64,000 bases of DNA from an uncultured bacterium (GCA_903893315.1 CAITLU010000024.1:5119-69118), one strand, 5' to 3'. Numbered from the stretch's first letter, positions 6,026 to 56,877 are shown. The notes: generated by a model from the sequence alone, not told the origin. Program-made: numbers and translations.

Positions 6026-6256
6026 CGGTCCGCTCCCCCTGCCGATTTAATCGGCCCTGTTGATCTGTCTGGCTGTAAGTTGCTCGGTCTTACAGCATCA
6101 GCCACCCTTCTTCGGATCCCGCAATCCTCCAAAGGCTTCACGCATCCAAGAATCGCGACTATTTCGGAATAAGGCAATAAGGCAAGCTCCGGTGTTGCTG
6201 ATTCGCGCGGTAATTTGGCCGTTGTAGAGGTCTCAGGATAGGCTAACCTCTGTTCA
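6026..6256. promoter_or_regulatory. Divergent intergenic region (TetR <-> BNR protein), relatively AT-rich; likely promoters/operator
   Basis: The only clearly AT-enriched ~230 bp stretch in the first 10 kb, lying between divergently transcribed genes. No specific operator could be identified by eye. Confidence 0.3.
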
Positions 6257-7868: not shown

Positions 7869-8885
7869 ATGGAACTGATCGGCGAATCGCTACGCGTTCA
7901 TCTTCTCGGCGTCGGCGGCAACAAGAAAGTCGAACAAGCGGTCGGCAACGTGCTGCTGGACCTGGCGACCGTGGCCAAGACCATAGCGAGCGAGGTCAAT
8001 CGGGCCGGACTGGCCGGCATTATCGGCAACGTCAACCACCGTAACGTCCACGGCGAGCAGGTCCAGAAACTCGACGTCTACGCGAACGACCTCATCGTCG
8101 CGTCCTTGCGCGCTTCGGGCAGCGTCTGCGGCATGGCCTCCGAGGAAGCCGAGGATATCATCGCCTCCTCCGCGATCGGCGAGAACTCCGAATACGTCGT
8201 CTGTTTCGACCCGCTTGACGGTTCCTCGAATATCGACGTGAACGTGAGCATCGGTACGATCTTCTCGATCTACAAGCGAAAGACCAGGAGCGGTGGTCCG
8301 GCCATCCTCGATGATTTTCTCCAGCCTGGCTGCAATCAAGTGGCTGCCGGCTACTTCGTGTACGGCACCAGCACGATGTTCGTCTACACGGCAGGTGACG
8401 GCGTGCACGGCTTCACACTCGAGCCTACGATCGGCGAATTTAGACTCTCGCATCCACGCATCAAGACGCCGGAGCGCGGCAAGATCTACAGTTGCAACGA
8501 AGGCCACTCGGCGACCTGGGACGAGGGCACGCGCGTTTACGTCGAGTCTCTCAAGACCCGCAGTGCCGGCACGGGACGTCCGTACTCGGGTCGCTACGTC
8601 GGTTCCTTCGTCGCCGACTTTCACCGCAATCTGCTCAAGGGCGGGATTTTCCTCTATCCCGCCGATCGCCGTGACCCCAAGCGTCCCGCCGAAGGCAAAC
8701 TGCGGCTCATGTACGAGTGCAACCCGCTGGCATTCATACAGGAGCAGGCCGGCGGCGTCGCGGTCGAGATCGACAAGCGCATGTTGGAGATCGTCCCGCG
8801 CGGCATCCATCATCGCGTGGCTCTGGTGATCGGCAGCCGCATCGACGTAGAAGAATATCTGGCCTGCCACGCCCAACACGTCTGA
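7869..8885 (+). CDS. fbp: Fructose-1,6-bisphosphatase class 1
   Basis: DPLDGSSNID metal-binding motif and overall FBPase class I layout at 338 aa. Confidence 0.9.
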   Translation: MELIGESLRVHLLGVGGNKKVEQAVGNVLLDLATVAKTIASEVNRAGLAGIIGNVNHRNVHGEQVQKLDVYANDLIVASLRASGSVCGMASEEAEDIIASSAIGENSEYVVCFDPLDGSSNIDVNVSIGTIFSIYKRKTRSGGPAILDDFLQPGCNQVAAGYFVYGTSTMFVYTAGDGVHGFTLEPTIGEFRLSHPRIKTPERGKIYSCNEGHSATWDEGTRVYVESLKTRSAGTGRPYSGRYVGSFVADFHRNLLKGGIFLYPADRRDPKRPAEGKLRLMYECNPLAFIQEQAGGVAVEIDKRMLEIVPRGIHHRVALVIGSRIDVEEYLACHAQHV

Positions 8886-8892
8886 GAGCCTT

Positions 8893-9340
8893 GCTGCAGA
8901 GGGTCCGCCGCGCCGCGGTGCGAGTGGACGCGGAGGTGGTCGGAGAGATCGGCCCGGGGCTGTGCGTGTTCGTCGGCGTCGGTCACGAGGATGGTGAAGA
9001 TGACGCGGCGCTTCTTGCCGAGCGCGTGGTCAACCTGCGTATCTTCGAAGACGAGGCCGCTAAGATGAACCGCTCGCTGTTGGACACTGGCGGTTCCCTG
9101 CTCGTGGTCTCGCAGTTCACCTTGATGGGAAACACGCGGCGTGGCCGTCGGCCTTCTTTCGTCGGCGCCGCCGAGCCGGAGCGGGCGGCGGCGCTGATCG
9201 AACATTTCATCTCTGTCGCGCGCGCGACCGGTTGTACTCTTGCTACCGGGCGTTTCGGCGCCAATATGATGATCGACATCGGAGCCGACGGCCCGGTGAC
9301 GCTGATGCTCGACAGCAAGGAAAAACGCAGTGCGTCGTGA
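8893..9340 (+). CDS. dtd: D-aminoacyl-tRNA deacylase
   Basis: LLQRVRRAAVRVDAEVVGEIGPGLCVFVGV...SQFTL...GPVT aligns along its full length with E. coli Dtd. The start is probably a TTG upstream of the track ORF (8717..9340), overlapping the fbp stop. Confidence 0.85.
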
Positions 9341-9809
9341 GGGGTTCTGGGCCATCGGTGGCTACAAGATCTCGTTTCGCCGTGACGGCTGTTGGTATGC
9401 CGACGAGGAGGTCATCGCGAACCGGCGTATTTCCAGGCTGTTTTCGCGACATCTGCGGGGAGACGGCGAGGGCGGATGGGTGATCGACGTCGGCATCGAT
9501 TGTCACCCGGTCACGGTGGAGGACACGCCTTTGGTGGTCACGTGGGTGGACGGCGACCCCGGCAGCGGATTCACCATCCGTACCAACGACGACGAGAGTG
9601 AAGTCCTCGACTGCACGAGTCTGGAGGTGGGCGAGGCGGAAGTGCTCTACTGCGAGGTGAATCGCGGTGAGCGAGGCCGTATGCGCGCCCGCTTCCTGCG
9701 CCCCGCCTACTACGCGCTGGCCGCTTACGTAGAACTCGAAGGAGGCCGTCCGGTGCTGCGCTGCCGTGGCCACAGCTTTCCCATCGGCGGCGCGGTCACG
9801 GTACACTGA
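9330..9809 (+). CDS. Conserved hypothetical protein, DUF1285-like
   Basis: Pattern ...ISFRRDGCWYADEEVIANRRISRLFSRHL...VIDVG...HPVTVEDTPLVV... recalls DUF1285. This is a family assignment from memory only. Confidence 0.5.
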   Translation: MRREGFWAIGGYKISFRRDGCWYADEEVIANRRISRLFSRHLRGDGEGGWVIDVGIDCHPVTVEDTPLVVTWVDGDPGSGFTIRTNDDESEVLDCTSLEVGEAEVLYCEVNRGERGRMRARFLRPAYYALAAYVELEGGRPVLRCRGHSFPIGGAVTVH

Positions 9810-9842
9810 CGCGATCTTCGCTCGGATCCCCGAGACCAACGC

Positions 9843-26211: not shown

Positions 26212-27144
26212 TTATCCGTCCACGCGTTCGATGACTACCAGGCGTCCGATGAGATGCCCGGGCGGAGGCGCCGGCGGGACTTGGATTTCGATACGTCCCG
26301 CCACTCCTTGGACGAGTCGTACTCCGGCGGCGGTAACGACGAAACCCTTCACCCTGAGCGCGCCGCGCTCCGACAGTTCGCCGAGCAGGACTTCGGGATC
26401 GACGATGCCGTCGACGACCATCTCCCGGCTGCAGTAATCATCGTGATGACGGTGGGTGTGGTCTTGCCGAGTGCGAGCGGCGGTGCCGTCACCAGCGAGG
26501 ATCCTGTTCTCGGGACTGTGGTCGCGGGGCTTCACGCCCGCCGGCGACGGCGGGAACACGATTCTCTCGTCGATCGTGCCGAAGCGGCAGCGCACGATAG
26601 CTACGCCCGGTTGTATCCGCTGCAACTCGGCTTCCGCGCGTACGCAGTCTTCGCTGCTGACAAGGTCGGTCTTGTTGAGAACCAGGAGGTCCGCCGAGCA
26701 GATCTGATCGATGAAAACAGGATCGAGGTCGCGGCCGGCGGCAACCTGCTCGGCGCTGACCACGACGATCGCGGTTTCGTCGCGGGCCCAGCCCCGCACC
26801 GGATCGCGCCAGAAGTTCAGCAGCGTGTCGTAGGGCAGGGCCACGCCGGATGTCTCGACGATGACGCGCTGGGGACGGGCCCTCTCCCACAGTTCCTGAA
26901 GTGTGCGCAGCAGGTCGTCGGAGAGGCGGCAGCACACGCAGCCTCCCGACAACTCCACGTAGTCGGCGGCGGCGTCCGCCAGCAAGGCTTCGTCGATGCC
27001 GAGTTCGCCGAACTCGTTGGAGACGACCGCGGTGCGGATGCCCTGACGCTGGCCCTCTTCGAGGAGATGGCGAACCAGCGTTGTCTTGCCTGAGCCGAGA
27101 AAGCCGGAGACGACCAGGGCCTGGGCGCTGTCGTGCTCTACCAT
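26212..27144 (-). CDS. COG0523 (CobW/ZigA-like) metallochaperone GTPase with a His-rich segment
   Basis: Walker A GFLGSGKTTL, the CxCC metal motif GGCVCC, NKTD, and a His-rich linker RTRQDHTHRHHDDYCS. Its start overlaps the stop of the MBL gene. Confidence 0.8.
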   Translation of the reverse strand: MVEHDSAQALVVSGFLGSGKTTLVRHLLEEGQRQGIRTAVVSNEFGELGIDEALLADAAADYVELSGGCVCCRLSDDLLRTLQELWERARPQRVIVETSGVALPYDTLLNFWRDPVRGWARDETAIVVVSAEQVAAGRDLDPVFIDQICSADLLVLNKTDLVSSEDCVRAEAELQRIQPGVAIVRCRFGTIDERIVFPPSPAGVKPRDHSPENRILAGDGTAARTRQDHTHRHHDDYCSREMVVDGIVDPEVLLGELSERGALRVKGFVVTAAGVRLVQGVAGRIEIQVPPAPPPGHLIGRLVVIERVDG

Positions 27145-27998
27145 GTCAGAATCGAAAAGCTCTGACCGGGGTACCTCTTGACCAGTCCGCCGAGCCACCA
27201 CACGCGCTCCGGTGCGGCTCTTTGTTCGAGGATGGAGGTGAGCGTTTGCTGGAGCGCAACCAGCGCCTCGCGCGGCATCGTCGTGCCCATATGACCGCAC
27301 AGCACGGTTCGTATTTCCGGGTAGTCGCCAAGCAGACGCTTGGTTGATTCAAGATAGGCGGCCAGATCGGCACCCGGCAGAAAAGTGTAAAGTTCCCCCG
27401 CATAAAGAAAGTCGCCGACGAATGCGTAGCCACGGGCCCGGTCGACAAGGGCGATCGAGTCGGGCGAGTGTCCGGGGATCGAAACGGCTTCGAGAACGCG
27501 ACCGCCGATGTCGATTTTTTCGCCGGGCTTCCACCATTCAGTGACCATGAAGCTGCTCGCCAACGGCGACAGACTCATCGCCAGCGATGGCGTGTAGCGG
27601 TTGTCGACGGTGTGCTCGCGGTTGATCGGCAGGTCGACCATGGCAATCTCATCGAAACTGCCGATGCTGCCGATGTGGTCGTAGTGAACGTGCGACGGAA
27701 TCACGGTTGTCGGCTTGCGCGTGACGTTGTCGGACATGTGCTTGATGTCGCGGGTGCCCGAACCGGCGTCGAACAGGATCGTGCGAACTTGTCCCTTGAT
27801 GATGAAGGAATTGTTCTTCTGCCAGTACTTGGGTTCTGAGATGGCCCAGGTGTCGGCGTCGATACGCGAGACGTCGAAGTACCCGTCGGTGGCGCTGATG
27901 CTGACCGGGGTCTGGGCCGAAGCCGGGCTCGGGCAACCCAATACGCATGTGGCCGCGGCTGCTGCCGCCGCGGCCATGACGACGAGGCTGGTGGCGAC
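27138..27998 (-). CDS. MBL-fold metallo-hydrolase, exported (probable lipoprotein)
   Basis: The HVHYDHIG (HxHxDH) metallo-beta-lactamase motif. N-terminal MAAAAAAAATCVLGC is a signal with a lipobox. The start is uncertain; the 5' part of the 377-aa ORF overlaps hrpB and is rejected. Confidence 0.7.
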   Translation of the reverse strand, partial: VATSLVVMAAAAAAAATCVLGCPSPASAQTPVSISATDGYFDVSRIDADTWAISEPKYWQKNNSFIIKGQVRTILFDAGSGTRDIKHMSDNVTRKPTTVIPSHVHYDHIGSIGSFDEIAMVDLPINREHTVDNRYTPSLAMSLSPLASSFMVTEWWKPGEKIDIGGRVLEAVSIPGHSPDSIALVDRARGYAFVGDFLYAGELYTFLPGADLAAYLESTKRLLGDYPEIRTVLCGHMGTTMPREALVALQQTLTSILEQRAAPERVWWLGGLVKRYPGQSFSILTW

Positions 27999-34041: not shown

Positions 34042-35514
34042 ATGATGAGCGCAGGGGAAACGAGATTCGCCCGACTGGTCGCCGGGATGTTTTTCGCGGT
34101 GTCGTTGGCCAAGCTCTTTACCCACGAGCCGTGGCGCGATGAGTGGGGCCCATGGGGAATCGCGCTGGCCAGCGACGGTCTGCGGCAACTGTGGCGGGCG
34201 TTGCCGTACGAGGGGCACGCCCGGTTCTGGTACTTCCTGGTCTTTGCGCTCGAGCGCGTTACCGGCCGCTTCGAGTCGGTACAACTGGTCACCGCGGTGT
34301 TCGCGACTGTCGCTGTGTGGGTAGTTGCGAGGTTCGCGCCGTTCCCGCGCTGGGCCCGGGTGCTGTTCGCCGTCGGCTACTATCCGCTCTTCGAGTACGG
34401 GTCGATCGCGAGACCTTACTCGATCGAACTGGCCGCGACATGCGTGGCCGCCGCTGTCTTTTGCCGCGCGCGCCGCGCGCCGCTGCCGTTGGCCGTCGCG
34501 CTCGTGGTTCTCGCGCAGACGACGATCTACGGCGTGATCCTGGCTGCGGCGTTCGGCGTGGCCTGGCTCGCTGATCTCTGGCGGGCAGCGCCGGGCGATC
34601 GCGCCTTGCCGTCGCACAGTTGGATCGCGGCCGGGATCGTCGGCGTCAGTATGGTTGCAGCGGTGGCACAGATGGTGCCGCCGTCCGATTCGACGTTCGC
34701 GCGCGGATGGCGCACGAAATTGGAGCCGTCGCGCGTGGCGCGCGTGGTGGCGACGGTGACGCGCGGAGTGACGCCGCTACCGCGCCCTCAGGTACACTTC
34801 TGGAACACCCACGTGCTGGACGGCAGCCCGCGGGTAGAGTGTGCCGTCGGCGCCGCGATGCTGCTCGTGTTCTCGTTGCTGTTCGTGCGCTCGCCGTCCG
34901 CATTGCTGCTGTGGATCGTCGCGACCGCCGGCCTGCTGGCCTTCGAGTACATCAAGTACGAGGGCTACGCGCGTCATCAAGGCCACTTCTTTCTCGCTTT
35001 CCTGGCGGCGGCGTGGCTCGCGATGGAGGCGCAGCGGGCAGCCGGAGCGAAGAATAATGTCGTGGCCTCGCTCGGGCTGGCGGTGCTGGCCGTGGTTCTC
35101 GTCGTCAACGCCGCTGGAGGACTGCTGGCCGTGGCGGTGGACTGGACGTTCCCGTTCTCGACCGCGACCGCCGCCGCGCAGACCCTGCGCCGCCGCGGTC
35201 TGGCCGAACTCCCGGCCGTGGGCCGCCGTGGATCGACCACCGCCGCGGTCGCTGCCGTGCTCGGACGGCCGATCGTGCTTGCCGGCACCGGCCGCACCTC
35301 GACGTTCGTCAGTTGGGACCACACCTACAGGGTTCCGTCGCTGCCGCGTGCGACCGAGGAAGCACGGCGCCTGGCGGCGACGTCAGGTTCGGCGGTGCTG
35401 CTCATCCTCGACACTCCGCTCGTGAAACTTCCGCGCCGCGTCGAATGGCTGGCTTCGATGGCCGAACCAATCGTGCGCGACGAGCAGTTCCACATCTACG
35501 TAGTGCAACCCTGA
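34042..35514 (+). CDS. Integral membrane protein, possibly a GT-C-type glycosyltransferase / DUF2029-like
   Basis: About 11 predicted TM, with an acidic W-rich first periplasmic loop (HEPWRDEWGPWG). The family cannot be assigned from sequence by eye. Confidence 0.5.
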   Translation: MMSAGETRFARLVAGMFFAVSLAKLFTHEPWRDEWGPWGIALASDGLRQLWRALPYEGHARFWYFLVFALERVTGRFESVQLVTAVFATVAVWVVARFAPFPRWARVLFAVGYYPLFEYGSIARPYSIELAATCVAAAVFCRARRAPLPLAVALVVLAQTTIYGVILAAAFGVAWLADLWRAAPGDRALPSHSWIAAGIVGVSMVAAVAQMVPPSDSTFARGWRTKLEPSRVARVVATVTRGVTPLPRPQVHFWNTHVLDGSPRVECAVGAAMLLVFSLLFVRSPSALLLWIVATAGLLAFEYIKYEGYARHQGHFFLAFLAAAWLAMEAQRAAGAKNNVVASLGLAVLAVVLVVNAAGGLLAVAVDWTFPFSTATAAAQTLRRRGLAELPAVGRRGSTTAAVAAVLGRPIVLAGTGRTSTFVSWDHTYRVPSLPRATEEARRLAATSGSAVLLILDTPLVKLPRRVEWLASMAEPIVRDEQFHIYVVQP

Positions 35515-36217: not shown

Positions 36218-36409
36218 ATGAAGGAAACTATCGTAGAGCAATTGCGCCGCCGGGCGATTGGTTGCGAAGACGAGGCCGAGATCGAGGCCGCGTTTTCGGA
36301 AATCGACGCGAGGTTGCGCTCACTGGTCGAATCGATCGATACCGCACGTGTTGATGAACCCGAATCGGGATGCTGGGAGTCCTCCAATCCGTGGCATGGC
36401 GCGCAGTAG
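36218..36409 (+). CDS. Small hypothetical protein (63 aa), questionable
   Basis: MKETIVEQLRRRAIGCEDEAEIEAAFSEIDARLRSLVESIDTAR… is helix-like in composition. It lies directly upstream of the coiled-coil gene; there is no other support. Confidence 0.25.
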   Translation: MKETIVEQLRRRAIGCEDEAEIEAAFSEIDARLRSLVESIDTARVDEPESGCWESSNPWHGAQ

Positions 36410-36455
36410 GCTTGCCGGCCGAGAGACGGGGTGTGTGGATGAAGATTGAACGAAT

Positions 36456-37541
36456 ATGAAAGTTGAATCTCCTCAGCCGGGGATGGCCACCGATCCTCTT
36501 CTGGGTCGTATTGAAACCGCCAAGCGCGACGCGATCGCGTCCGTTGCTTCGCTGCGCGAGACCCTGTGGGCGCGTACTCTCGTGCTGTCTCAACTGCGCG
36601 CCGACCTTGCCCGTGCTGTCGATGCCTTCGAAGAGGATCGCCGTGCGCTCGAGCGAGAGCGCGAGCAATTGGACAAGCAGATCAATCAGCCGCTCGACCC
36701 GCAGGTTTTCGAAGCGCGGTTGATCGAACAACGGGATCAGCTGGTTCGGGATCTTGCTGCTTTCGAGGGTGAGTCCACGGCGATTCGCGAGCGCGCTTCC
36801 AAGCGAGCCGAAGAGATGGCGGCGCGCGAAAAAGCGTTGGCCGAGGCGCAAGCCGATCTGGACGAGGAATACCGGACTTGCGCGCGCGAACGTGCGGCGA
36901 TGCAGGCCACGGCTCAAGCCAGCGGCCGGGAAATTGCCGCTCGTGAGAACGCGCTCTGTGCCGAGCGTGAGCAATTCTCGACGGACGTCGCGGGTTTCAC
37001 TCAGGAACGGACCGAGGCCGAAGCGCGCCTTGCGGCGTTCGGCAGCGAGCTCGATTCCCGTGAGCGTGTTCTGGAAGTCGAAAGGTCCGCTCTTCAGCAG
37101 CAGCGTCGAGAAGTGGAACAGCACGAGCAGGACGTACGCAGATCCGAGACGGCGGGTGCGCAGGAACTTGCCCGCCGCCGTCTGGAACTCGAAGAACGCC
37201 GCGTGGAATTGGACCAGGAAAGCGAAGCGCTCGCTCAGGCCCGCGAGGGGCTCGACCCCGAATGCGAACGTCGCTCCGGCGAACTGAAAGTTCTCGCCGC
37301 GAGTCTCGACGAGCAGCGCCAGACACTCGAACAAGAGCGCGTCGAAATGGAGAACGAGCGCCGGAGAGTGTCGCAAGAGCGTCGAACGCTCGACCAGTCG
37401 GCGGCTTCAAAACTGGCGGAACTCGGAGCCCTTGAAGTCTGGCTTGCGCAGTCGCGTGCGCGACTCGAGTTCGAGGTTTCACAGGTCACGGCCGAACGTG
37501 AACGACTAGGTGCCCAAGCGCGCACGTCTAAAACTGTTTGA
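36456..37541 (+). CDS. Coiled-coil protein (361 aa, E/R/A/L/Q-rich, heptad-like throughout)
   Basis: The translation is almost entirely coiled-coil forming (…LEREREQLDKQINQ…ERVLEVERSALQQQRREVEQHEQ…). The opposite-strand ORF is F/L-rich mirror junk. Confidence 0.7.
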   Translation: MKVESPQPGMATDPLLGRIETAKRDAIASVASLRETLWARTLVLSQLRADLARAVDAFEEDRRALEREREQLDKQINQPLDPQVFEARLIEQRDQLVRDLAAFEGESTAIRERASKRAEEMAAREKALAEAQADLDEEYRTCARERAAMQATAQASGREIAARENALCAEREQFSTDVAGFTQERTEAEARLAAFGSELDSRERVLEVERSALQQQRREVEQHEQDVRRSETAGAQELARRRLELEERRVELDQESEALAQAREGLDPECERRSGELKVLAASLDEQRQTLEQERVEMENERRRVSQERRTLDQSAASKLAELGALEVWLAQSRARLEFEVSQVTAERERLGAQARTSKTV

Positions 37542-37601
37542 TCGGCTCGCGGCTTTCGCCACGAAACTCCACGCCGGCGTCTATCCAGGGATACTCTCGG
37601 C

Positions 37602-37925
37602 ATGAATGACACCGTTATCGACGAAGCGATGCGGATCGGCGGCGTGCGTGGCGTGGCCGTGGTCGGCGCGTCAGGCAAGGTCTCGGCGGCCAGTGGTGCC
37701 GCCGGCGAACTCAGCCATTTTTTCGAAATGCTTTTCGCTGCGGCCTTGCCTCACGCTCGCGACGCTGCGGCGCTGTCGCTTCGACGCATTGTGGTGCGAA
37801 CCGACAGGGATGAAGTGTTTTCTCTCTTGATGGAACGCGCTGAAGCCTTGGGGCTCGTTTCCGAAAAATGGCGACCGGTTACCGAACTGTGCGCGGACCT
37901 GGAAGCGCTGCTGGCGCGCAACTGA
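37602..37925 (+). CDS. Roadblock/LC7 (MglB-like) domain protein, divergent
   Basis: 107 aa. …AMRIGGVRGVAVVGASGKV.AASG… followed by an alpha-beta core resembles the LC7 fold. Its stop overlaps the next start (TGATG). Confidence 0.6.
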   Translation: MNDTVIDEAMRIGGVRGVAVVGASGKVSAASGAAGELSHFFEMLFAAALPHARDAAALSLRRIVVRTDRDEVFSLLMERAEALGLVSEKWRPVTELCADLEALLARN

Positions 37926-38539
37926 TGCGGACCGTTCTGCGAGATCTTGAAAGCGTCAGCGGGGTTCGTTGCGGCTGCATAGTGCGCGACGGCGAAGTCC
38001 TGGCGTCGACGTTCATCGGTGACAGTGCGGCCACGCTCGCCGCAAGCCGGGAACTCGTCGGTGCGATCGCCGAGGGCCTGGAACTGCTGGGCCGGGAATT
38101 GGATGAGGTGCTGTTGGATCTCGGTGAGGCATCCGTAGTGGTCGTCCCGGTCGAAGAGGGATTCACGCTCACGCTGCTGGCGGGAGCGGAGACGAACCTG
38201 GACCTGCTGCGCGTGGTGATGCAGTCGTCGGTGCGGCAGATCCGCATGATGCTTTCGCGGGCGCCTCAGGTCTCTGCGTCGTCGGTGAGCACCAAGCAGC
38301 CGGACACTTCTGACGAAGACGTCGAGCGGCTCTTTCCGAAGATCATCGAACTTCTCACGGTGAGCATCGGGCCGGCTGCGCGAGTGGTCTTCAAGCACGG
38401 CGTTTCGATGTGGAAGGCGTCGCACACACCGACGGTCGGCAATCTGGTTTCGCTGGTCGAGATCCTGTCGGTGGACCTTGCCTCCGACGAGGATAGGCTT
38501 TGGTTTTGCCAAGAGGTCGAGCGTCTGCACACAGGCTGA
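37925..38539 (+). CDS. Roadblock/LC7 (MglB-like) domain protein with ~95-aa C-terminal extension
   Basis: LRDLESVSGVRCGCIVRDGEVLAS…ASVVVVPVEEGFTLTLLAGAETNLDLLRVVMQSSVRQIRMML is a textbook MglB-type Roadblock. The extension is then …FPKIIELLTVSIGPAARVVF…. Confidence 0.75.
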   Translation: MRTVLRDLESVSGVRCGCIVRDGEVLASTFIGDSAATLAASRELVGAIAEGLELLGRELDEVLLDLGEASVVVVPVEEGFTLTLLAGAETNLDLLRVVMQSSVRQIRMMLSRAPQVSASSVSTKQPDTSDEDVERLFPKIIELLTVSIGPAARVVFKHGVSMWKASHTPTVGNLVSLVEILSVDLASDEDRLWFCQEVERLHTG

Positions 38540-38614
38540 TGATTGCCGGTGACGGCTACGGATTCGTTCTCGTGCAGCCATATCCTCAAGGACAAAGGAA
38601 CACAGTGACAGTCG

Positions 38615-39799
38615 ATGCTTAGTCTGCGCAACAAACTCGCGTTGGCGTTCGCCGCCGTCGTGCTGCCGCCGCTGATCGCGCTCGGCTGGTACGGCGGCAA
38701 CCGGATCGAAACGACACTTCGCGCTCAGAGCCGCGAGCGGCTCGAGACACGAATCGAGGCGTTGTCCGTGCAGATCGAGAGATACCTGGCAGGTACCGAC
38801 GGTGACTTGTTGTTGCTGGCCGGGATGCCTGCGTTCGCGCAGTACCTGCTCGCGCTCGACAGCGGCGACCTGCAACTGACGGATGCGGCCAGGAGCAATC
38901 TGGCCCTGGGCTTCGCGCGCGTGTCGGAGATCCGCGCAACCTATTCGCAGATCCGCTACATCGACGCGTCAGGTGCCGAGATGATCAGGGTTGAGCGAAA
39001 CGGTGACGTCACGACCATCGTGGCCGCCGGCAAAGTCGATGCCAGGCGCAGCGGGACCGACTTCGAAGAAACCATGAAGCTTGCCAAGGATGGGGTCAGG
39101 GTTTCTCCGGTGGGGCTCGATCGTGAGAACGGCGTGATCGAAGATCCGCGCCGGCCCGTCATTCACTACAGCACGCCGGTATTTGATGCGTCGGCCCAGC
39201 GCCGCGGAGTGCTGGTGATCGGTGTGGCCGTAGTACCGATCCTGGAGATGGTGGCGAAAGCGTCGGTTGATGGTGAAAAGTTGCTGATGGTCGACGCCGC
39301 CGGCTCGTACTTGAGACATCCTGAAGCGAGTAAGGACTGGGGAGGGGATTCCGATCTCAAGACGGGCGAGAGCCTGGTGCGAGACTACCCTGAACTGGGA
39401 GCGAGGATCCTGGCGGTGAAGTCGCGCTTCACGAGCGAAGGCGACGAGGATTTCACTCTCGCCAGGGCGATCGCCGTCCCGGGCGCCAAGAGCGCGGGTT
39501 TCGGTATCGTGGTCGATCTGGTGCCGACGCGGATCCTGGATGCGGCGGCCAGCCAATGGCGCATCGTATTGAACGTTCTCACGCTCGTTGCCGCGGTGTT
39601 TGCCATCGCTGCGGGCGCGCTCGTGGCTCACTTCGTCACGCGTCCGATTCTGGCGCTGATACAGGTCGTAGACCGCACGAGTCGCGGTGACCTCGACCAG
39701 CCCATCGTGGTGGTGGCTGGTGACGAGACGCAAATCCTGGCGAGCGCTGTGGAGCGTCTGCGCAAGTCGCTGAAGCTGATGATTGACAAGTACTCGTGA
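38615..39799 (+). CDS. Membrane sensor: TM1 - periplasmic (Cache/dCache-like) domain - TM2 - HAMP, no output domain
   Basis: TM1 LALAFAAVVLPPLIALGWYGG; a ~280-aa periplasmic region; TM2 IVLNVLTLVAAVFAIAAGALVAHFV; a HAMP-like TRPILALIQVVDRTSRGDLDQ…LRKSL. The ORF ends about 25 aa after HAMP. Confidence 0.7.
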   Translation: MLSLRNKLALAFAAVVLPPLIALGWYGGNRIETTLRAQSRERLETRIEALSVQIERYLAGTDGDLLLLAGMPAFAQYLLALDSGDLQLTDAARSNLALGFARVSEIRATYSQIRYIDASGAEMIRVERNGDVTTIVAAGKVDARRSGTDFEETMKLAKDGVRVSPVGLDRENGVIEDPRRPVIHYSTPVFDASAQRRGVLVIGVAVVPILEMVAKASVDGEKLLMVDAAGSYLRHPEASKDWGGDSDLKTGESLVRDYPELGARILAVKSRFTSEGDEDFTLARAIAVPGAKSAGFGIVVDLVPTRILDAAASQWRIVLNVLTLVAAVFAIAAGALVAHFVTRPILALIQVVDRTSRGDLDQPIVVVAGDETQILASAVERLRKSLKLMIDKYS

Positions 39800-39841: not shown

Positions 39842-41200
39842 ATGCTCTCCGCTAGCGCGGCCCGGGACCTTCGCGGACGCAGAGGCGAAGCTTGGAATCG
39901 GCTGCCGTTCTCATACTATCGCGCGTCCGTGTTCCCGGTCTTACTGAAATTCGGCCCCTTTACCGTCTACAGCTTCGGCGTGTTGATGGCGCTCGGGTTC
40001 TACTTCGGATCGTTGGTTTCGGTGAAGGAGTTCGAACGCCGCGGCGGGGATGGCGAAACACTCTGGAACCTTCTGGTATGGGTGTTTCTCGGCGGCCTCG
40101 TCAGTTCGCGGGTGCTGTCGATCTTCAACAACCCTTCGGCGTTTTTCGAGAGCCCGCTGTCGGAGATCTTCGCGGGCGCGGGTTTCGTCTGGTACGGCGG
40201 GTTTCTCGGCGGCGCGGCGACGGCGTGGCTGCTCGGCCGTCGAAAGAACCTCGCCTTCTTGACCCTGGCCGACTGCTGCGCGCTGGGGCTGGCCCTCGGT
40301 CAGGCTTTCGGGCGTGTGGGCTGTCACGTCGCGGGCGACGGGGACTGGGGCAAGGTCACCGATCTGCCTTGGGGCGTCGCCTATACGCATGCCATCGTCG
40401 GCTGGTCCTACCCTGATGGAGTCCTCGTGCATCCGACTCCACTGTACGAGGTGGCCGCTTACCTGGCGCTGTTCGCGTTCCTGTGGCGCTACCGTCATCG
40501 CAACCCGCCGACCGGGTCGATGTTCGCGGTCTATCTGATCGGCAACGGCTTCGCGCGTTTCTGGGTAGAGTTCCTTCGCATCGAGCCGGTGCTGGCTCTG
40601 GGGTTGACGCAGGCCCAGTGGATCGGCATGGCGTTGACCGCGGCGGGTGCCATATGGCTGCTGCGTCGCGGTCCGGCCGTCAACGCGAGAGCGACGGCCG
40701 TGGGATTGGCCGCCCTGCTCCTGGTGGTTCCGCTTGGCGGCTGCGACAGCAAGGTCGGTGTCTCCGAGGGAGACCTGGCCCCCGATTTCATCCTGCAGAG
40801 TGCCGACGGACAGACGCGCAAACTTTCCAACTATCGCGGGCACGTCGTGCTGGTGAATCTGTGGGCGACCTGGTGTCCGCCCTGCATGGAAGAGATGCCG
40901 GTGCTCAACCAACTGGCCGAGCGGTATCGCGACAAGGGCTTGGTGGTGCTCGGTCTTGCCGGGGATGACGACCCTCAGCGGGTCCGCGACTTTGTCGCCA
41001 AGTCACCGCTCAAATTCGAAGTTCTGCTCGACTCGGACGGTGCGATCGGAACTCAGTATGGTATAACCGGCTACCCGGAGACCTTTTTCATAGATAGAGA
41101 AGGCCGGGTTCGCGACAAGATCATCGGAGCCATTCCCGGCCGGGCCGGCGGTGTGTCTCCCCAGTTCGCGCAGCGGCTGGAAAGTCTGTTGGGTGGTTAG
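39842..41200 (+). CDS. lgt: Prolipoprotein diacylglyceryl transferase (Lgt) fused to a C-terminal TlpA/ResA-like thioredoxin domain (WCPPC)
   Basis: N-terminal 270 aa: GPFTVYSFGVLMALGF, the GRVGCHVAGDGDWG (Lgt signature-like) and HPTPLYE motifs. C-terminal 170 aa: …RGHVVLVNLWATWCPPCMEEMP…GYPETFFIDREG… is a thioredoxin fold with a CxxC motif. The start codon is uncertain. Confidence 0.75.
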   Translation: MLSASAARDLRGRRGEAWNRLPFSYYRASVFPVLLKFGPFTVYSFGVLMALGFYFGSLVSVKEFERRGGDGETLWNLLVWVFLGGLVSSRVLSIFNNPSAFFESPLSEIFAGAGFVWYGGFLGGAATAWLLGRRKNLAFLTLADCCALGLALGQAFGRVGCHVAGDGDWGKVTDLPWGVAYTHAIVGWSYPDGVLVHPTPLYEVAAYLALFAFLWRYRHRNPPTGSMFAVYLIGNGFARFWVEFLRIEPVLALGLTQAQWIGMALTAAGAIWLLRRGPAVNARATAVGLAALLLVVPLGGCDSKVGVSEGDLAPDFILQSADGQTRKLSNYRGHVVLVNLWATWCPPCMEEMPVLNQLAERYRDKGLVVLGLAGDDDPQRVRDFVAKSPLKFEVLLDSDGAIGTQYGITGYPETFFIDREGRVRDKIIGAIPGRAGGVSPQFAQRLESLLGG

Positions 41201-41281
41201 GCAGTGGCCGGCGTCGCCGGGGTTGGAAGGACGCGGGTCGATGGGTTGTGGTGGAGGAGTAGCGGTGCTGCTGAAGCTGGG

Positions 41282-41962
41282 ATGATCCGAGTTCACGGTG
41301 TCAGTAAATCTTACGGAGGGACGCGTCAGGCCCTTCGTGGTGCCAGTCTGCAAGTACGCGAGGGCGAGTTTGCCGCGCTGACCGGCCCGAGCGGGTCCGG
41401 CAAGACGACGCTGTTTCGTCTGTTGATCGGCGAGCTGCGGGCCGAAGGCGGCAGCGTCGTGGTGAACGGCCGCAACCTCTCGCGTCTGGACGCCTCCGGT
41501 ATCGCTGAGTTGCGTCGTGAACTGGGGCTGGTCTTTGAAGAACCGCATTTGATCGAACGGCTGACGGTCGAAGGCAACGTGGCCCTGGCGGCCCAGGTTG
41601 CGGGCCGCTCGTGCCGTGAGGCGCGCCGGTTGGCCGAAGAAGCTCTCGAGAGAGTGGGGCTCGACGATGCGGCCGGTTGTTTCCCGAGCGCGCTGTGCGC
41701 CGGCGAGCGCCAACGCGTCAGTATCGCGCGGGCCCTGGTAAATCGGCCCGCGCTGATTCTTGCCGACGAGCCCACGCTCGGCCTCGACCCCGACCAGGGT
41801 CTTTACGTGTTGAAGATTCTCACGCAGGCTTGTCGCGATGGCGCCACGGTTTTGATGGCGACTCACGACATGGAAGCCCTTTCCGTGCTGAGGGGGCGAG
41901 TCCTGGTGATGGCACGCGGCCGCTTCGTGGAAGACTGCGAAGGCGACAGCGCCTACAACTGA
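41282..41962 (+). CDS. ftsE: Cell division ATP-binding protein FtsE
   Basis: MIRVHGVSKSY…GPSGSGKTTL…ERQRVSIARALVNRPALILADEPTLGLD. Confidence 0.9.
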   Translation: MIRVHGVSKSYGGTRQALRGASLQVREGEFAALTGPSGSGKTTLFRLLIGELRAEGGSVVVNGRNLSRLDASGIAELRRELGLVFEEPHLIERLTVEGNVALAAQVAGRSCREARRLAEEALERVGLDDAAGCFPSALCAGERQRVSIARALVNRPALILADEPTLGLDPDQGLYVLKILTQACRDGATVLMATHDMEALSVLRGRVLVMARGRFVEDCEGDSAYN

Positions 41963-41981
41963 CGACGAGGACGCCGGACCC

Positions 41982-42863
41982 TTGGAGTATTATTTCCGTC
42001 GCGCGCTCGACAGCATCAAGGCCTCACCGGCAGCCTCGGGTGTGGCAGTGGCGAGCATTGCCGCGAGCGTGTTGTTCGCGGGCGCGGTGTTGCTGGTCAG
42101 TTCGAACGCCTACCGCATGGTGGCCCGCTGGGCGGCGGCCGGTGTCGACGTCTCGATCTTCTTCGCCGGCGACGCCCGCGAAGCCGACATCGTCGTCGTC
42201 AAGGCCCGCGTCGCGGCCGACTCTGACGTCATAGACTCACGCTTCGTCAGTTCCGAGGATGCCTGGCAGTTTCTCGCCGACACGCTCGACCGGTCGGCCG
42301 AGTTGCTGGCTGGAATGGACCCTTCGGTGTTGCCTGCTTCCGTGGAAGTGAAACTGGAACGCTCGCTCGGCGATGGTGAGATCCAGGCGCGATTGGCCGA
42401 GTGGCGCGCGCTGCCCGGCGTTTCCGACGTACAGTCGAGTCGCAGCCTGGGGAGCGCCGGGAACGGGGCCTTGGACGTCGTACGCTGGGTGGCCTGGGCG
42501 CTAGGCGCCCTTACACTGGTCGCTTCGGTGATAATCGTGGCGAGCACGTTCCAGCTGGCCGCTTACACGCGTCGCGAAGAGATGAACCTGCTGCGCCTGG
42601 TCGGCGCGGTGGGCCCCGTTTACTGGGGGCCGATCGTGCTCGCGGGGTTCCTCGAAGGAATCGCGGCGTCGGCGATCGCGCTGGCCCTTCTTTTCCTGGT
42701 CTTTGCCGGGGTGGCAATCCCGATCAGCAGTGAGCTTCCGGTGGTTTCTGCTGCGCTGGCCTTTCTCGGAGCGCGGCAATGTCTGACTCTGGCGCTGTGG
42801 GGCGCCGCTCTCGGCGGCGCCGGCAGCGCGCTCGGAATGTGGAGGATATCGCGGTGGCGATGA
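41982..42863 (+). CDS. ftsX: Cell division permease FtsX
   Basis: 293 aa with an N-terminal TM, a periplasmic domain and three C-terminal TM. It directly follows ftsE, and its stop overlaps the envC start (ATGA). Confidence 0.88.
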   Translation: MEYYFRRALDSIKASPAASGVAVASIAASVLFAGAVLLVSSNAYRMVARWAAAGVDVSIFFAGDAREADIVVVKARVAADSDVIDSRFVSSEDAWQFLADTLDRSAELLAGMDPSVLPASVEVKLERSLGDGEIQARLAEWRALPGVSDVQSSRSLGSAGNGALDVVRWVAWALGALTLVASVIIVASTFQLAAYTRREEMNLLRLVGAVGPVYWGPIVLAGFLEGIAASAIALALLFLVFAGVAIPISSELPVVSAALAFLGARQCLTLALWGAALGGAGSALGMWRISRWR

Positions 42864-44590
42864 CGCTTCGGCGTCCCACCATCGCTGCGGCGCCGGCCGC
42901 GTCCCAAGCTCTGCGGCTCGCTGTCCGCGGCCTGCTCTCCATTCCCGCAAACTCGTTCACCGCTGTGGGTCGCTGCGCGTTTGGTGTGTGGCTTTGCCTC
43001 TTCGCTTGCGTTGGTCTCGGCGGTGCCGGTCGCGCGCGAGCCGAGGACCCGGCGCAGCGTGCTGCGCAGATCCGCGACGAAATTCTCGCCAAGCGCCGTT
43101 CGCAGAGCGAGCGCGGAGGCCGTCAGCAGGCGCTCGAACGTGAAATGGATCAGGCGCGTGCGCGCGCCGATCGGATCCGTGCCGATCTCGATGCGGCTGC
43201 CGAGCGGATTGCTCGTGTCGACGCTCAGCATGCCCGCATCGTCGCCAAGCTGGCCGATCTCGATGCGGCCACGCAGCGCCAACGCAGCATCCAGCGCACC
43301 CGGCTGGCGGCGATGTATCGCGCCGCGGATCTCGGCGCGGGTGCGGCTGGGTGGCAGTCCGGCTTCAGCGCCGAGAGCATTCGTCTGGCCCGATATCTGG
43401 TCGCCGCCGCATCACGAGGCGGCAGCGAGACGGCAACGCTCGAGGTGCAAAGGGGCAGTAACCTGGCGGCGCTCAACCAGTCCGGTGTCGACAGACAACG
43501 CGTCCTCGACGAGCAGCGCCGTCTCCAGGACTCGCGCGTGATCGCCGAGAGTGATCTGGCCCGCGCGCAGTCCAGACGCGAGCCGGCCGACTCATCGGCG
43601 GGTTTCGGGTCCGCTGAGGCGACGGCGGGGCTGGCGGCCGTTGCCGCGGAACTGGAGAGGAAAAGCGCCGACGGGGCTCGCCAGGGTCGGGCGCAGGTTT
43701 CGCCGGGTCTGCAGCAGGACTCCGCGCCGGGCGTCTCCACCGAAACCAAGGCGCTGGCGGACAGGAAGGCCCAGGCCACCGATACCCAGGCTTTGCTGGC
43801 CGAGGCCAGGATGCGCGCCGCCGCGGCGCAGGCGCGAGATCAAGCCGGCTCGGCGCGCAAGGCCGGTGCTGACACCGTGCGCGCGCAGCCGCAGGGTTCG
43901 ACGTTTGATTGGTCTGAGCAGGCGGCGGGAGCGTCGCGCGGCGAGTCTGCAGGCAGCCTCGCCATGGCCGGGCGGGGAGGTGCTCCTGGCGCCGGCGACC
44001 TCAACGGCGGGCCGGGTCGGGCGAGTTCCATTGCGCCCGGCGAAGGGGCCAGCGCTCGGCAAAGCGGCGCGGCAGCGCCGGCGGATGCCGCACAGGCACC
44101 GGCAACTGCGCCGGCGGCTGAAGCGAGTGGAGCGGGCGCGCAGGGCGGAGTGCTATCGCATCAGTTCGGCAGCGACAGCGAGGAGGCCAAGCGCTTCGCT
44201 TCGAGCAAGGGTTCGCTGGTGCCGCCGCTGGCGGGTCGGGTGGTGGCGAAGTTCGGACAGCGCAACGGCGGCTCTACTTATCGAGGGGTGGTCGTGCGCG
44301 GTGACCGTGGATCTTCGGTCAGGTCGGTGGCCGGCGGGACAGTACTCTTTGCGGGGTCGCTGCCGAATCTGGGCAGCACGTTGATCGTCAGCCACGGTGG
44401 CCGCTATCACGCCGTCTATGCCCGCCTCGGTTCTTTGCGATTCAAAGTCGGCGATCACGTCAACGCCGGTGACGTCGTCGGCACGCTGCCGGCCGATGAC
44501 GGCGACCTTCATTTCGAGATGCGACTGGACGGTCACGCCATCGATCCGTTGCCGTGGCTCAAGGGCAGCGGTCGGGATCTGTCGCGTTAG
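42860..44590 (+). CDS. envC: EnvC-like murein hydrolase activator (coiled coil + long A/G/S-rich linker + degenerate LytM/M23 domain)
   Basis: Signal/TM, a ~150-aa coiled coil and a ~200-aa low-complexity linker. The C-terminal M23-like domain lacks HxxxD and has a single His in LHFEMR, which predicts an inactive activator type. Confidence 0.8.
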   Translation: MTLRRPTIAAAPAASQALRLAVRGLLSIPANSFTAVGRCAFGVWLCLFACVGLGGAGRARAEDPAQRAAQIRDEILAKRRSQSERGGRQQALEREMDQARARADRIRADLDAAAERIARVDAQHARIVAKLADLDAATQRQRSIQRTRLAAMYRAADLGAGAAGWQSGFSAESIRLARYLVAAASRGGSETATLEVQRGSNLAALNQSGVDRQRVLDEQRRLQDSRVIAESDLARAQSRREPADSSAGFGSAEATAGLAAVAAELERKSADGARQGRAQVSPGLQQDSAPGVSTETKALADRKAQATDTQALLAEARMRAAAAQARDQAGSARKAGADTVRAQPQGSTFDWSEQAAGASRGESAGSLAMAGRGGAPGAGDLNGGPGRASSIAPGEGASARQSGAAAPADAAQAPATAPAAEASGAGAQGGVLSHQFGSDSEEAKRFASSKGSLVPPLAGRVVAKFGQRNGGSTYRGVVVRGDRGSSVRSVAGGTVLFAGSLPNLGSTLIVSHGGRYHAVYARLGSLRFKVGDHVNAGDVVGTLPADDGDLHFEMRLDGHAIDPLPWLKGSGRDLSR

Positions 44591-44672
44591 CCTCACGGCT
44601 TAGTGGTGTTCCGTGCACCGCCGCGGCTGATCGCTTTGTTGCCGGCTCCAAGCCCTTTGCTATACTCCGCCG

Positions 44673-46019
44673 GTGTTTGTCCGAAAAAGGTCCCGTAAAC
44701 TTCTTCTCACCTTCTCCTTAGCCGCCGCAGCCGGTGGGTTCCTGTATCTGACCGGGCAGCGAGCCGCCTCCGCAGCCAAGGGCACCTACGAGAGCCTCGA
44801 GACCTTCGCCAGCATCATGGCGATCGTCCAGAAGAGCTACGTCGATGAGGTTCCGAGTGAGGACCTGATCCAGGGCGCCATCAAGGGCATGGTCGGGTCG
44901 CTGGATCCGCACAGTTCCTATCTCACGCCCGACGGTTACAAGGAGTTGCAGATCGAAACCACCGGCGAGTTCGGTGGACTCGGCATCGAACTCACCGTTC
45001 GTGACAACCTCCTGACGATCGTCACGCCGATCGACGGAACGCCGGCCTTTCGCGGCGGCGTCAAGCCCGGCGACCAGATCATCAAGATCGATGACGATCT
45101 GACGATGGACATGGGACTTCAGGAAGCCGTCGACAAGATGCGCGGCAAGCCCGGCAGCCGGGTGAGGTTGTCGTTGCGTCGTGAAGGCGTGCAGGGTCTG
45201 GTCGACATCAACCTGACACGTGAGGTGATTCACGTGAAGAGCGTCCGCGGCGGCCGTCTGGTCGACGGCCGCTTCGCGTACGTCCGGCTCACCAGTTTTC
45301 AGGAAGCTTCGGCCGATGAGTTGGTCCAGGCTCTGGACAAACTCGACAAGGAGAAGCACGGCGGCGTCGACGGCATCGTGCTCGATCTGCGTTTCAATCC
45401 CGGCGGTCTGCTCACGCAGGCGGTGGCGATCTCCGATCTGTTCCTCGATGCAGGCCTGATCGTTCGCACTGACGGACGCATCGAATCTCAGGTGCACAAG
45501 TTCTTCGCCCAGGCCGAAGGTACCCGGCGCATGGTTCCGATGGTGGTGATCGTCAACGAAGGTTCGGCCAGCGCTTCTGAAATCGTAGCCGGGGCTCTTC
45601 AGGATCAGCATCGCGCGATCGTCGTCGGTACCCGCAGCTTCGGTAAGGGATCGGTGCAGACCATCCTGCCGCTGCCCGACGATTCGGCTTTGCGTCTGAC
45701 TACGGCGCGCTATTACACGCCTTCGGGGCGATCGATCCAGAGCACTCCGATCCAGCCTGATGTCGTCGTGGAAATGCCCAAGCTCGACGCCAAGCAGACG
45801 GCGGACGCGATCGCCGCAGCCGAAAAGCGTTCGCCCCACGAGGATTATTTCGATCTTGCCCGCGACCCCCAGCTCGCCAGGTCTTTCGAACTGCTGCGTT
45901 CCTGGGATGGCGACATCCAAAGGATTGGCGGCGTTGCCGGCTTCCATCTGGAACGATTGGCGAAGGCTGAACCTGTCAAGGCTGAACCTGCCAGGGGAGC
46001 GGCCAAGTCCAAGAAGTAG
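44673..46019 (+). CDS. ctpA: Carboxyl-terminal processing protease (S41, CtpA/Prc-like) with PDZ domain
   Basis: PDZ (…GGLGIELTVRDNLLTIVTPIDGTPAFRGGVKPGDQIIKID…) and an S41 catalytic region with …GSASASEIVAGALQD…SFGKGSVQ…. Confidence 0.9.
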   Translation: MFVRKRSRKLLLTFSLAAAAGGFLYLTGQRAASAAKGTYESLETFASIMAIVQKSYVDEVPSEDLIQGAIKGMVGSLDPHSSYLTPDGYKELQIETTGEFGGLGIELTVRDNLLTIVTPIDGTPAFRGGVKPGDQIIKIDDDLTMDMGLQEAVDKMRGKPGSRVRLSLRREGVQGLVDINLTREVIHVKSVRGGRLVDGRFAYVRLTSFQEASADELVQALDKLDKEKHGGVDGIVLDLRFNPGGLLTQAVAISDLFLDAGLIVRTDGRIESQVHKFFAQAEGTRRMVPMVVIVNEGSASASEIVAGALQDQHRAIVVGTRSFGKGSVQTILPLPDDSALRLTTARYYTPSGRSIQSTPIQPDVVVEMPKLDAKQTADAIAAAEKRSPHEDYFDLARDPQLARSFELLRSWDGDIQRIGGVAGFHLERLAKAEPVKAEPARGAAKSKK

Positions 46020-56246: not shown

Positions 56247-56285
56247 TGGGGCCGCCTCCGCTTCGGGGGGGCGGCCTCTTTAGTT
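56247..56285 (+). terminator. GC-rich hairpin followed by a T-rich tail downstream of the SRPBCC gene
   Basis: GGGGCCGCCtccgcttcggggGGGCGGCCTCTTTA. It immediately precedes the engB start. Confidence 0.45.
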
Positions 56286-56877
56286 GATGAAGGTAACTCT
56301 CGCCGAGTTCCGCGCTTCCGCCGTGACGCCTGCGGCAATTCCCGCCGCCGTTCATCCGGAGGTGGCGATCGCCGGTCGTTCCAACGTCGGCAAGTCGTCG
56401 CTGATCAACCGCATGACCGGGCGGCGCAGTCTGGCGCGCACCAGCCGTACGCCCGGCTGTACGCGCGGGCTGATCTTCTACAACATCAACGACGCGCTGA
56501 CCCTCGTCGATCTTCCCGGCTACGGTTACGCGAGCCGTTCCCAGACCGAGCGCCGCCAGTGGAAGAGCCTGGTGGAACGCTATCTGGCCACCCGCGAAGA
56601 ACTCGCCTGCGTGCTGATCCTGATCGACTGCCGTCGGGGCCCGCAGCAGGAGGAACTCGACCTCGCCGAGTATCTGTCGTCGGTGGGACTCGTCTACGTC
56701 TACGTTCTGACCAAGACCGACAAACTGAGCCGCTCGGAGTTGTCCCGTCACGGAGCGGTGCTGCGCGCTGCGGTAGAGCCGGCGCCGGTGATCGCGACAT
56801 CTTCCGAAAGCGGCGCAGGAATAGACTCCCTGTGGAAGTGGATCCGCGCGGCGATCGCCACGGAGCGGCAGGGGTGA
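56284..56877 (+). CDS. engB: Ribosome biogenesis GTP-binding protein EngB (YsxC/YihA)
   Basis: G1 AGRSNVGKSSLIN, G3 DLPGYG and G4 TKTD, at 197 aa. Confidence 0.9.
   Translation: MMKVTLAEFRASAVTPAAIPAAVHPEVAIAGRSNVGKSSLINRMTGRRSLARTSRTPGCTRGLIFYNINDALTLVDLPGYGYASRSQTERRQWKSLVERYLATREELACVLILIDCRRGPQQEELDLAEYLSSVGLVYVYVLTKTDKLSRSELSRHGAVLRAAVEPAPVIATSSESGAGIDSLWKWIRAAIATERQG

Follow-up and report, generated by a model that had tools for sequence, protein, structure and literature searches.

We analyzed a 64,000-nucleotide (nt) stretch of DNA from an uncultured bacterium (GCA_903893315.1, CAITLU010000024.1:5119-69118; 64% GC), referred to here as the window, and concentrated on positions 36218-39799, where five open reading frames (ORFs) follow one another in the same direction on the + strand. 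We designated them S, A, B, C, and D, in gene order. S (36218..36409, +), the first gene of the module, is predicted to encode a small helical protein of 63 amino acids (aa), and A (36456..37541, +) a 361-aa coiled-coil protein. B (37602..37925, +) encodes a putative divergent Roadblock/LC7 protein of 107 aa. C (37925..38539, +) encodes a 204-aa protein that joins a Roadblock domain, through a short linker, to the domain of unknown function DUF8082. D (38615..39799, +) encodes a 394-aa sensor built of a transmembrane segment (TM), a double-Cache-like domain, a second TM, and a HAMP domain. The intergenic distances are 46 nt (S-A), 60 nt (A-B), -1 nt (B-C), and 75 nt (C-D). The B-C junction reads TGATG, with the stop codon of B and the ATG of C sharing 1 nt, and thus shows the overlapping stop and start of the two Roadblock genes described in an initial annotation of this DNA. 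That annotation, made by a model from the sequence alone, had listed A to D, all of which are present on the + strand at the positions it gave; its count of four fell short, since a fifth conserved gene, S, begins at the annotation’s own start, 36218. Judging from the sequence, we interpret S-A-B-C-D as a five-gene operon.

Substitutions relative to orthologues pile up at the third codon positions of the + frame in A, B, C, and D. For A, compared with its orthologue at locus L005, the first, second, and third positions carry 52, 40, and 139 substitutions, respectively. From this codon-position pattern, we regard A, B, C, and D as genuine + strand genes under purifying selection. The same third-position bias ruled out a 382-aa antisense ORF (36228-37376, -) as a real gene. 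The GC content at third codon positions (GC3) of this ORF is 0.73, higher than the 0.64 of gene A; the ORF appears to be a shadow of coiled-coil coding rich in GAG, CGC, and GCC codons, and a gene picker relying on GC3 would take the wrong strand.

Taken singly and searched against a Pfam copy without PF26309, B and C match Robl_LC7 (PF03259) alone, and the two alignments span nearly the whole model. The Roadblock assignment failed when each protein was scored as a single sequence against the Pfam gathering score of 23 bits (B, 19 bits, E = 1.2e-3; C, 16 bits, E = 0.01; the orthologue P0002, 20 bits); it held at the profile level for both proteins and at the structure level for C. The Roadblock domain of C comprises residues 1-111 (37925..38257, +). 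A profile of these 111 residues, aligned with 18 relatives, matched in the PDB the Asgard Roadblock 7f8m (4.4e-9), 7yh1 (3.9e-6), CvnB5 (3leq, 7.2e-6), 9jue (3.7e-4), and Rv3364c (1.5e-3). The AlphaFold2 (AF2) model of C, with a predicted local distance difference test (pLDDT) score of 63, has the order helix-strand-strand-helix-strand-strand-strand-helix, which is the Roadblock topology. When this model was compared with the PDB using Foldseek, each of the top 50 matches was a Roadblock, MglB, or LAMTOR structure (best E = 5e-7, TM-scores of 0.6-0.8). Together, the profile and the model identify the N-terminal part of C as a Roadblock. The label “canonical MglB-type Roadblock” initially given to this protein was right as to Roadblock and overstated as to “canonical MglB-type”, the identity to MglB in the Foldseek matches being 16-20% and the likeness lying at the fold level only.

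For B, a narrow profile found no relative in the PDB, and a broad profile of nine members retrieved Roadblocks only (7f8m, 2.6e-3; 7yh1, 4e-3; a third chain, 0.08). Aligned with the N-domain profile of C by hhalign, the B profile gave a probability of 93.6% (E = 2e-7). Robl_LC7 was matched by four of the seven B family members, and matches to other Pfam families were confined to one member (E = 0.11). The AF2 model of B, which drew on an alignment of only three sequences, is poor (pLDDT 58.6), has mis-modelled central strands, and yielded no significant Foldseek match. Overall, the profile matches to Roadblocks and to the N-domain of C suggest that B is a divergent Roadblock paralogous to C, as the initial description “short divergent Roadblock” had it. 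B lies directly upstream of C at every locus where upstream DNA is present, and the pair is closely spaced or overlapping at all loci. Roadblock proteins generally form heterodimers, and MglB is not known to supply a catalytic residue recognizable from its sequence.

The C-terminal extension of C, estimated initially at about 95 aa, is indeed present; it is made up of an 18-aa linker (residues 112-129, 38258..38311, +) and a 75-aa DUF8082 (PF26309; residues 130-204 plus stop, 38312..38539, +). It is thus neither a GTPase nor a kinase output, but a small, predicted helical domain. In alignments, the linker of 18 aa in the window contrasts with Pro/Ala-rich linkers of 65-230 aa in the relatives. 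An alignment of 43 DUF8082 domains suggests a four-helix domain with the motif L..LT..IGPvArv.FK..v..W.....PT...L..L..iLa.dL. Precomputed PF26309 matches exist for orthologues of C; the match on the window protein itself is faint, and the AF2 model of C is of low confidence over this domain. By sequence, we found no solved structural homologue of DUF8082, the only matches being spurious ones to designed TPR proteins; nor did we find an NCBIfam model or, in the searchable literature, a paper on the domain. When 1.84 billion representative proteins were searched with a profile, only 39 with DUF8082 were retrieved. Most have the order Roadblock, linker, DUF8082 (210-350 aa), and the JGI annotation of one of these is Roadblock/MglB-family regulator. 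Other carriers are proteins combining REC, DUF4388 (PATAN), and DUF8082, and Ser/Thr kinases in which DUF8082 is present in two to four copies. These REC-PATAN and Ser/Thr kinase carriers suggest a signalling context for DUF8082.

The sensor D starts with TM1 (residues 6-28, 38630-38698, +), assigned by hydropathy. A periplasmic double-Cache-like domain follows (38699-39550, +), recognized by an above-threshold match to the Pfam family PF21623, HK_sensor_dom_bact (E = 2.5e-15); a dCache_1 match fell below its threshold. Directly after TM2 (about residues 313-335, 39551-39619, +, again by hydropathy) comes a Pfam HAMP domain (residues 336-387, 39620-39775, +; E = 4.1e-8, 33.9 bits against a cut-off of 25), and a tail of 7 residues leads to the stop codon. 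The TM-periplasmic-TM-HAMP protein ending right after HAMP, as initially reported, is therefore what the gene encodes, and this ending is conserved. Searching 5.8 billion proteins, we recovered 41 orthologues of D at 49-71% identity, all of them 387-399 aa long and consisting of the Cache-like and HAMP parts only. No MCPsignal, HisKA plus HATPase, or GGDEF output follows HAMP in D or in any of the 41. The next relatives, proteins of 578 aa with the order Cache-HAMP-GGDEF, share only 24-27% identity with D. The conservation is strong over the full length, including the C-terminal ERLRKS.KLM.DKYS, and the AS1 Pro and AS2 Glu of HAMP are invariant among the orthologues. We also considered whether D might be a truncated pseudogene of a methyl-accepting chemotaxis protein (MCP) or histidine kinase, a concern raised in the initial annotation; this was ruled out, as all 41 orthologues end at HAMP and none exceeds 399 aa. 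In L002, a strain assembly 99.7% identical to the window, D is split into ORFs of 268 and 127 aa (5789-6975), because of a frameshift variant or else an error in the assembly.

The 361-aa product of A had been described as a “pure coiled-coil” protein, and its properties agree with this description: E, A, R, L, and Q make up 65% of its residues, Pro accounts for 1.7%, Gly is almost lacking, heptad periodicity runs throughout, and there is no TM or other hydrophobic segment. No Pfam domain was found in A beyond weak matches of the coiled-coil type. An anti-phage defence role, searched for with PADLOC, was rejected, since only A matched a model, and this match, to the rod of LmuB, was weak (E = 7.5e-5) and of the coiled-coil kind. 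The relatives of A are far longer (1,051-1,372 aa; for example, L005 5422-9540 and L013 5497-8661), and the motif LExWLAxSRxRLE recurs in them four to seven times, mostly at intervals of exactly 156 residues. The motif ends each 156-residue repeat and is found seven times in L005 and L008, five times in L013, and at least five times in L007. Residues 1-290 of the window protein, its head, are colinear with residues 1-290 of the L005 protein at 65-85% identity, and the head is the best-conserved part of A among the relatives (50-85% identity). Residues 290-361 match repeat ends best, corresponding to the last ~70 residues of one unit with the motif at W329, followed by the stop. The short A is identical in three independent assemblies, and a fourth, at 99.7% identity, also has the short allele. 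Repeats within the relatives are 25-50% identical to one another. With the assemblies in agreement and the repeats so divergent, we ruled out that the gene had been collapsed during assembly, and from these comparisons the window A is a genuine short allele of a repeat protein of 1,051-1,372 aa. S has orthologues of 67-76 aa, 30-70% identical to the window protein, directly upstream of A in L005, L008, L011, L013, and L020-L022, and matched no Pfam family. The repeats of A and the linker of C are both shortened in the same organism.

One explanation of these short forms is that the module is decaying in this organism, the short A and the short linker of C representing loss of function. A is about 700-1,000 aa shorter than all its relatives, the linker of C has 18 aa instead of 65-230, and D falls into two ORFs in the near-identical L002. 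Yet the window and three independent assemblies of identical sequence keep every one of the five ORFs intact, the deletion in A is in frame and keeps both the head and a repeat end, and both domains of C, as well as D, are unimpaired; we consider decay highly improbable.

A gene-neighbourhood survey, one of the checks proposed along with the initial annotation, showed that the arrangement recurs with unrelated flanks. The full order S-A-B-C-D was found at about ten loci in metagenome-assembled genomes (MAGs), mostly labelled Binatia (L005/L018, L008-L010, L011, L013, and L020-L022). L007 and L019 have A-B-C-D on contigs that begin inside A, so the position of S lies off the contig. The taxon labels of the MAGs (Candidatus Binatia, Deltaproteobacteria, “uncultured Myxococcales”, and Limnocylindrales) disagree even for near-identical modules, and, these labels being inconsistent, we use “Binatia-type” as a working group name. 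Close relatives keep the whole neighbourhood, from a nitroreductase gene through to lgt-tlpA, ftsEX, M23, ctp, and xseA. In L011, L013, and L020-L022, the flanks differ entirely; L011 has DUF1329/CAP/FG-GAP genes, and L013 has genes for dehydrogenases and an ABC transporter. In L007, the gene downstream of the module lies on the opposite strand. Because the arrangement is kept where the flanks differ completely, chance synteny does not account for it, and the module is real and conserved.

More distant loci retain parts of the module. At L016 (GCA_003354045.1), a coiled-coil gene whose product has at least 1,644 aa and an oppositely oriented OmpA-family gene precede B, C, and the start of D. 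In a lineage of 38-41% GC, reached by scanning metagenomes with low-GC relatives of C, two loci (L026 and L027) encode B, C, a D of 392-393 aa that ends at HAMP (hidden Markov model (HMM) of D, E = 3e-97), and a Tll0287-like sensor; neither has a coiled-coil gene. B and C occur without the other genes at L023 (where a 189-aa call has B as its C-terminal portion), L014, and L017. By this distribution, B-C is the core of the module, D a frequent partner across very deep divergence, and A with S a lineage-specific addition. We found no description of this gene arrangement in the searchable literature. The OmpA-domain gene of L016 (5053-6174, -) sits between the giant coiled-coil gene and B; coiled-coil and OmpA-domain proteins are conserved neighbours of Group 1 Rup GTPases (Wuichet & Sogaard-Andersen).

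The additional sensor of the low-GC lineage, encoded right after D (L027 4387-5268; L026 8189-8824), is a second receptor without an output domain. It consists of a TM, a Tll0287-like domain (PF11845, E = 3e-33), and HAMP, is 293 aa long, and ends just past HAMP; in its HAMP and tail, it is similar to D. Two adjoining HAMP-only sensors might mean sensor-sensor complexes, and the nearest non-orthologous relatives of D are the Cache-HAMP-GGDEF proteins. Both observations are compatible with D being an accessory co-sensor that acts in mixed complexes with a histidine kinase, chemoreceptor, or cyclase encoded elsewhere, next to Roadblock genes that are co-regulated neighbours and nothing more. This explanation seems to us improbable. 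B-C-D linkage is kept from the 64% to the 38% GC lineages while all other neighbours are replaced, none of the module flanks contains a kinase, MCP, or cyclase gene, and the short cytoplasmic part of D is conserved to its last residues, which fits a dedicated partner.

The initial annotation had also stated that no GTPase or kinase is encoded in cis, and we found this to be the case across the window and the related flanks. No MglA-like sequence is present in the 64-kb window. The window’s only GTPases, a CobW/COG0523 protein (26212-27300, -) and an EngB-type protein (56284-56877), were rejected as partners of the module, being members of housekeeping families located 9 and 17 kb away. The next genes downstream of D (lgt-tlpA, ftsE, ftsX, an M23 peptidase, ctp, and xseA) include no output enzyme, and FtsE is the only P-loop protein in the flanks (up to 10 kb, often less) of the Binatia-type and B-C-D loci.

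A link to a GTPase came from the distant locus L025, where a 371-aa GTPase-Roadblock fusion (8695-9810) is encoded directly upstream of a C-type gene. Its N-terminal domain is a small GTPase (ATP_bind_1, 2.6e-12; Ras, 1.5e-4) with the P-loop GPVGAGKT, the motif GTPGQ, a G4 motif TRSD that lacks Lys, and DGR, and its residues 271-371 form a B-family Roadblock (B-HMM, E = 2e-25). Odd G4 and G5 motifs such as these have been reported for MglA Groups 2 (conservon CvnD) and 3 (PMC4316618). Because the two are fused in L025, the B-type Roadblock is tied to an MglA-type GTPase. Gene fusion is classical evidence that parts work together where they are separate in relatives. At the level of sequence, the fusion gives direct support to a GTPase acting in trans, one of the two alternatives offered in the initial annotation. 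The C-type gene of L025 is followed by a gene whose periplasmic product looks similar, on visual comparison, to the rhodanese-like ORF that comes after C in L017. The arrangement at L017, where the contig is cut, is probably the same.

These observations lead us to propose, tentatively, that the module is a kinase-less relative of the conservon and MglA/MglB systems, in which a HAMP-only receptor acts through a Roadblock pair on a GTPase encoded in trans; the full mechanism has, in our judgement, somewhat less than an even chance of being correct. A periplasmic ligand would bind the double-Cache-like domain of D, and the signal would pass through the membrane into the HAMP bundle. Because D lacks an enzymatic output, this signal would have to be read by a bound protein. 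The candidate readers are B and C, paralogous Roadblocks from translationally coupled genes that probably form a heterodimer. This pair may serve as a platform for, or a regulator of, an MglA/CvnD-family GTPase encoded elsewhere in the genome, in the manner of a GTPase-activating protein (GAP) or a guanine nucleotide exchange factor (GEF), while the tethered DUF8082 of C may contact a further partner. In Binatia-type lineages, A, together with S, could act as a scaffold or effector, in parallel to the coiled-coil MglA partners AglZ and FrzS. Four of these elements, namely heterodimerization of B and C, their docking on HAMP, the trans GTPase in this organism, and the role of A, are ones that we infer.

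Several points weigh against this proposal. No MglA-family GTPase is encoded in the window or in the surveyed flanks of the Binatia-type and B-C-D loci. The GTPase fusion comes from one distant locus, with L017 as a possible second, and it occurs without D. The assignment of B to the Roadblock fold draws on weak profile matches and is accompanied by a poor AF2 model. Only about one quarter of the usual length of A is left in the window, so the rod may be dispensable or its function changed. Orphan MglB homologues make up 328 of 749 (44%), and at least one characterized orphan-type paralogue, MglC, is reported to serve as an adaptor and not as a GAP (PMC4316618; PMC4719450, respectively). As orphan Roadblock genes are common, the absence of a GTPase in cis is unremarkable on its own.

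Some of the same facts fit the main rival, a scaffold that works independently of any GTPase. B and C would then be a structural adaptor linking D to A and to a partner of DUF8082, and ligand binding would reorganize a cytoskeleton-like rod, or change its location, with no nucleotide switch involved. LC7 is a structural adaptor in dynein, and MglC is an adaptor in the polarity module of Myxococcus. Besides the frequency of orphan Roadblocks, such a role would agree with the lack of a cis GTPase at any of the about 12 D-carrying loci, with the co-inheritance of a giant coiled coil with exact 156-aa repeats in two lineages, and with the extra domain of protein-interaction type that C carries on a flexible Pro/Ala linker. 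However, the L025 fusion ties this Roadblock family to an MglA-type GTPase, and the coiled coil is not a universal output, because A is missing from the low-GC B-C-D loci and is shortened to 361 aa in the window. We regard the scaffold explanation as possible but rather doubtful; the co-sensor and decay explanations are less likely still.

Apart from the uncharacterized DUF8082, the domain types of the proposed receptor-Roadblock pathway are all known, and its logic resembles that of known systems. Bacterial sensor-coupled small-GTPase systems are known mainly from actinobacterial conservons. In these, a HAMP-containing membrane sensor with a kinase module, a Roadblock (GAP), DUF742 (GEF), and a GTPase act together (PMC13343842; PMC4316618). 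Like the conservons (CvnA-D; mycobacterial Mfp), the module encodes a sensor with TM and HAMP beside an MglB-type Roadblock, B and C lying directly upstream of D. Conservons are believed to rely on protein-protein contacts for passing their signal to a small MglA-family GTPase. The N-domain profile of C matches CvnB5 (3leq) and Rv3364c, and the L025 GTPase has G4 and G5 motifs of the Group 2/3 type. In contrast to conservon sensors, D has no DHp/HATPase, and neither DUF742 (CvnC) nor a GTPase (CvnD) is found among the five proteins or their neighbours. The module also has two Roadblocks rather than one, the second bearing DUF8082, adds a coiled-coil and a small helical protein, and occurs in hosts that are not Actinomycetota.

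The MglA/MglB(/MglC) system of Myxococcus and the Group 3 systems of beta/gamma-Proteobacteria likewise use regulators of the Roadblock fold, including paired paralogues (MglB with MglC; 1:2 stoichiometry), together with coiled-coil MglA partners such as AglZ and FrzS. Systems with one MglA to two MglB exist, and MglB homologues and PATAN proteins neighbour MglA genes (PMC4316618), an association mirrored by the presence of DUF8082 on PATAN proteins. Unlike these systems, the module has a HAMP-only TM receptor and a domain, DUF8082, that is absent from MglB and MglC. It also has no mglA within four genes, the criterion for a “coupled” system (Wuichet & Sogaard-Andersen 2014), except in L025, where the GTPase is present as a fusion. 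Ragulator (LAMTOR2/3 and LAMTOR4/5 with the Rag GTPases) offers a parallel in which heterodimers of Roadblock paralogues form a membrane platform beside a membrane-embedded nutrient sensor, and LAMTOR2 and MP1/p14 structures are among the top Foldseek matches of C. Ragulator, however, is eukaryotic and anchored by lipidated LAMTOR1; homology does not extend beyond the fold, and the analogy is one of architecture only. The input half of D (TM, a PF21623 double-PDC/Cache-like domain, TM, and a canonical HAMP) is that of Cache-HAMP kinases, chemoreceptors, and diguanylate cyclases, which differ in continuing into a kinase, MCP-signal, or GGDEF output where D stops 7 residues past HAMP.

How conservon sensors communicate with the Roadblock and the GTPase is still an open question (PMC13343842). 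The module presents a minimal case, in which HAMP is the receptor’s only cytoplasmic part and two Roadblocks are encoded alongside it. If our reading is correct, it would provide a simple system for studying how a Roadblock platform reads a conformational change in HAMP, would extend “G-protein-coupled” signalling beyond Actinomycetota and Myxococcota, and would give DUF8082 and a family of orphan Roadblocks their first functional context. The 156-residue-repeat coiled coil, with one to at least seven motifs among relatives, forms a natural length series for ideas about scaffolds and rulers. A wider version of the proposal would make the module a widespread kinase-free pathway from receptor to G protein, in which a Roadblock heterodimer docks on HAMP, gates a trans MglA-family GTPase, and, in Binatia-type bacteria, also positions a ruler-like coiled coil of 156-residue repeats. 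DUF8082 would then be a new adaptor domain, one that PATAN regulators and Ser/Thr kinases have as well. Taken as a whole, we think this version rather unlikely.

Immediately downstream of the module (39842-41200, +) lies a fusion of prolipoprotein diacylglyceryl transferase (LGT, E = 1e-49) to a C-terminal TlpA/ResA-like thioredoxin fold (Redoxin/AhpC-TSA, E = 1e-29). Relatives conserve this fusion with lengths of 425-452 aa. It combines, unusually, lipoprotein maturation and a periplasmic thiol-disulfide oxidoreductase in one protein. It is followed (41204-46019, +) by a cluster for cell division and the envelope, with ftsE, ftsX (FtsX_ECD), a 603-aa M23 peptidase, and a CtpB-type S41 protease, and then by xseA. 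The M23 peptidase has a long, Ala/Arg/Gly-rich and partly coiled N-terminal region and is EnvC-like. In L011 (2732-5008) and L013 (3576-5243), whose contexts otherwise differ, a DUF1329/LolA-like gene stands immediately upstream of S. In the window, the module instead precedes lgt. It may thus have some connection with the biology of lipoproteins or the envelope. On the other side, a gene for a 490-aa protein without a Pfam match (34042-35514, +) precedes the module; its counterpart of 489 aa is found upstream of the module in L005 and L002 and is absent in L008, and the protein is probably unrelated to the module.

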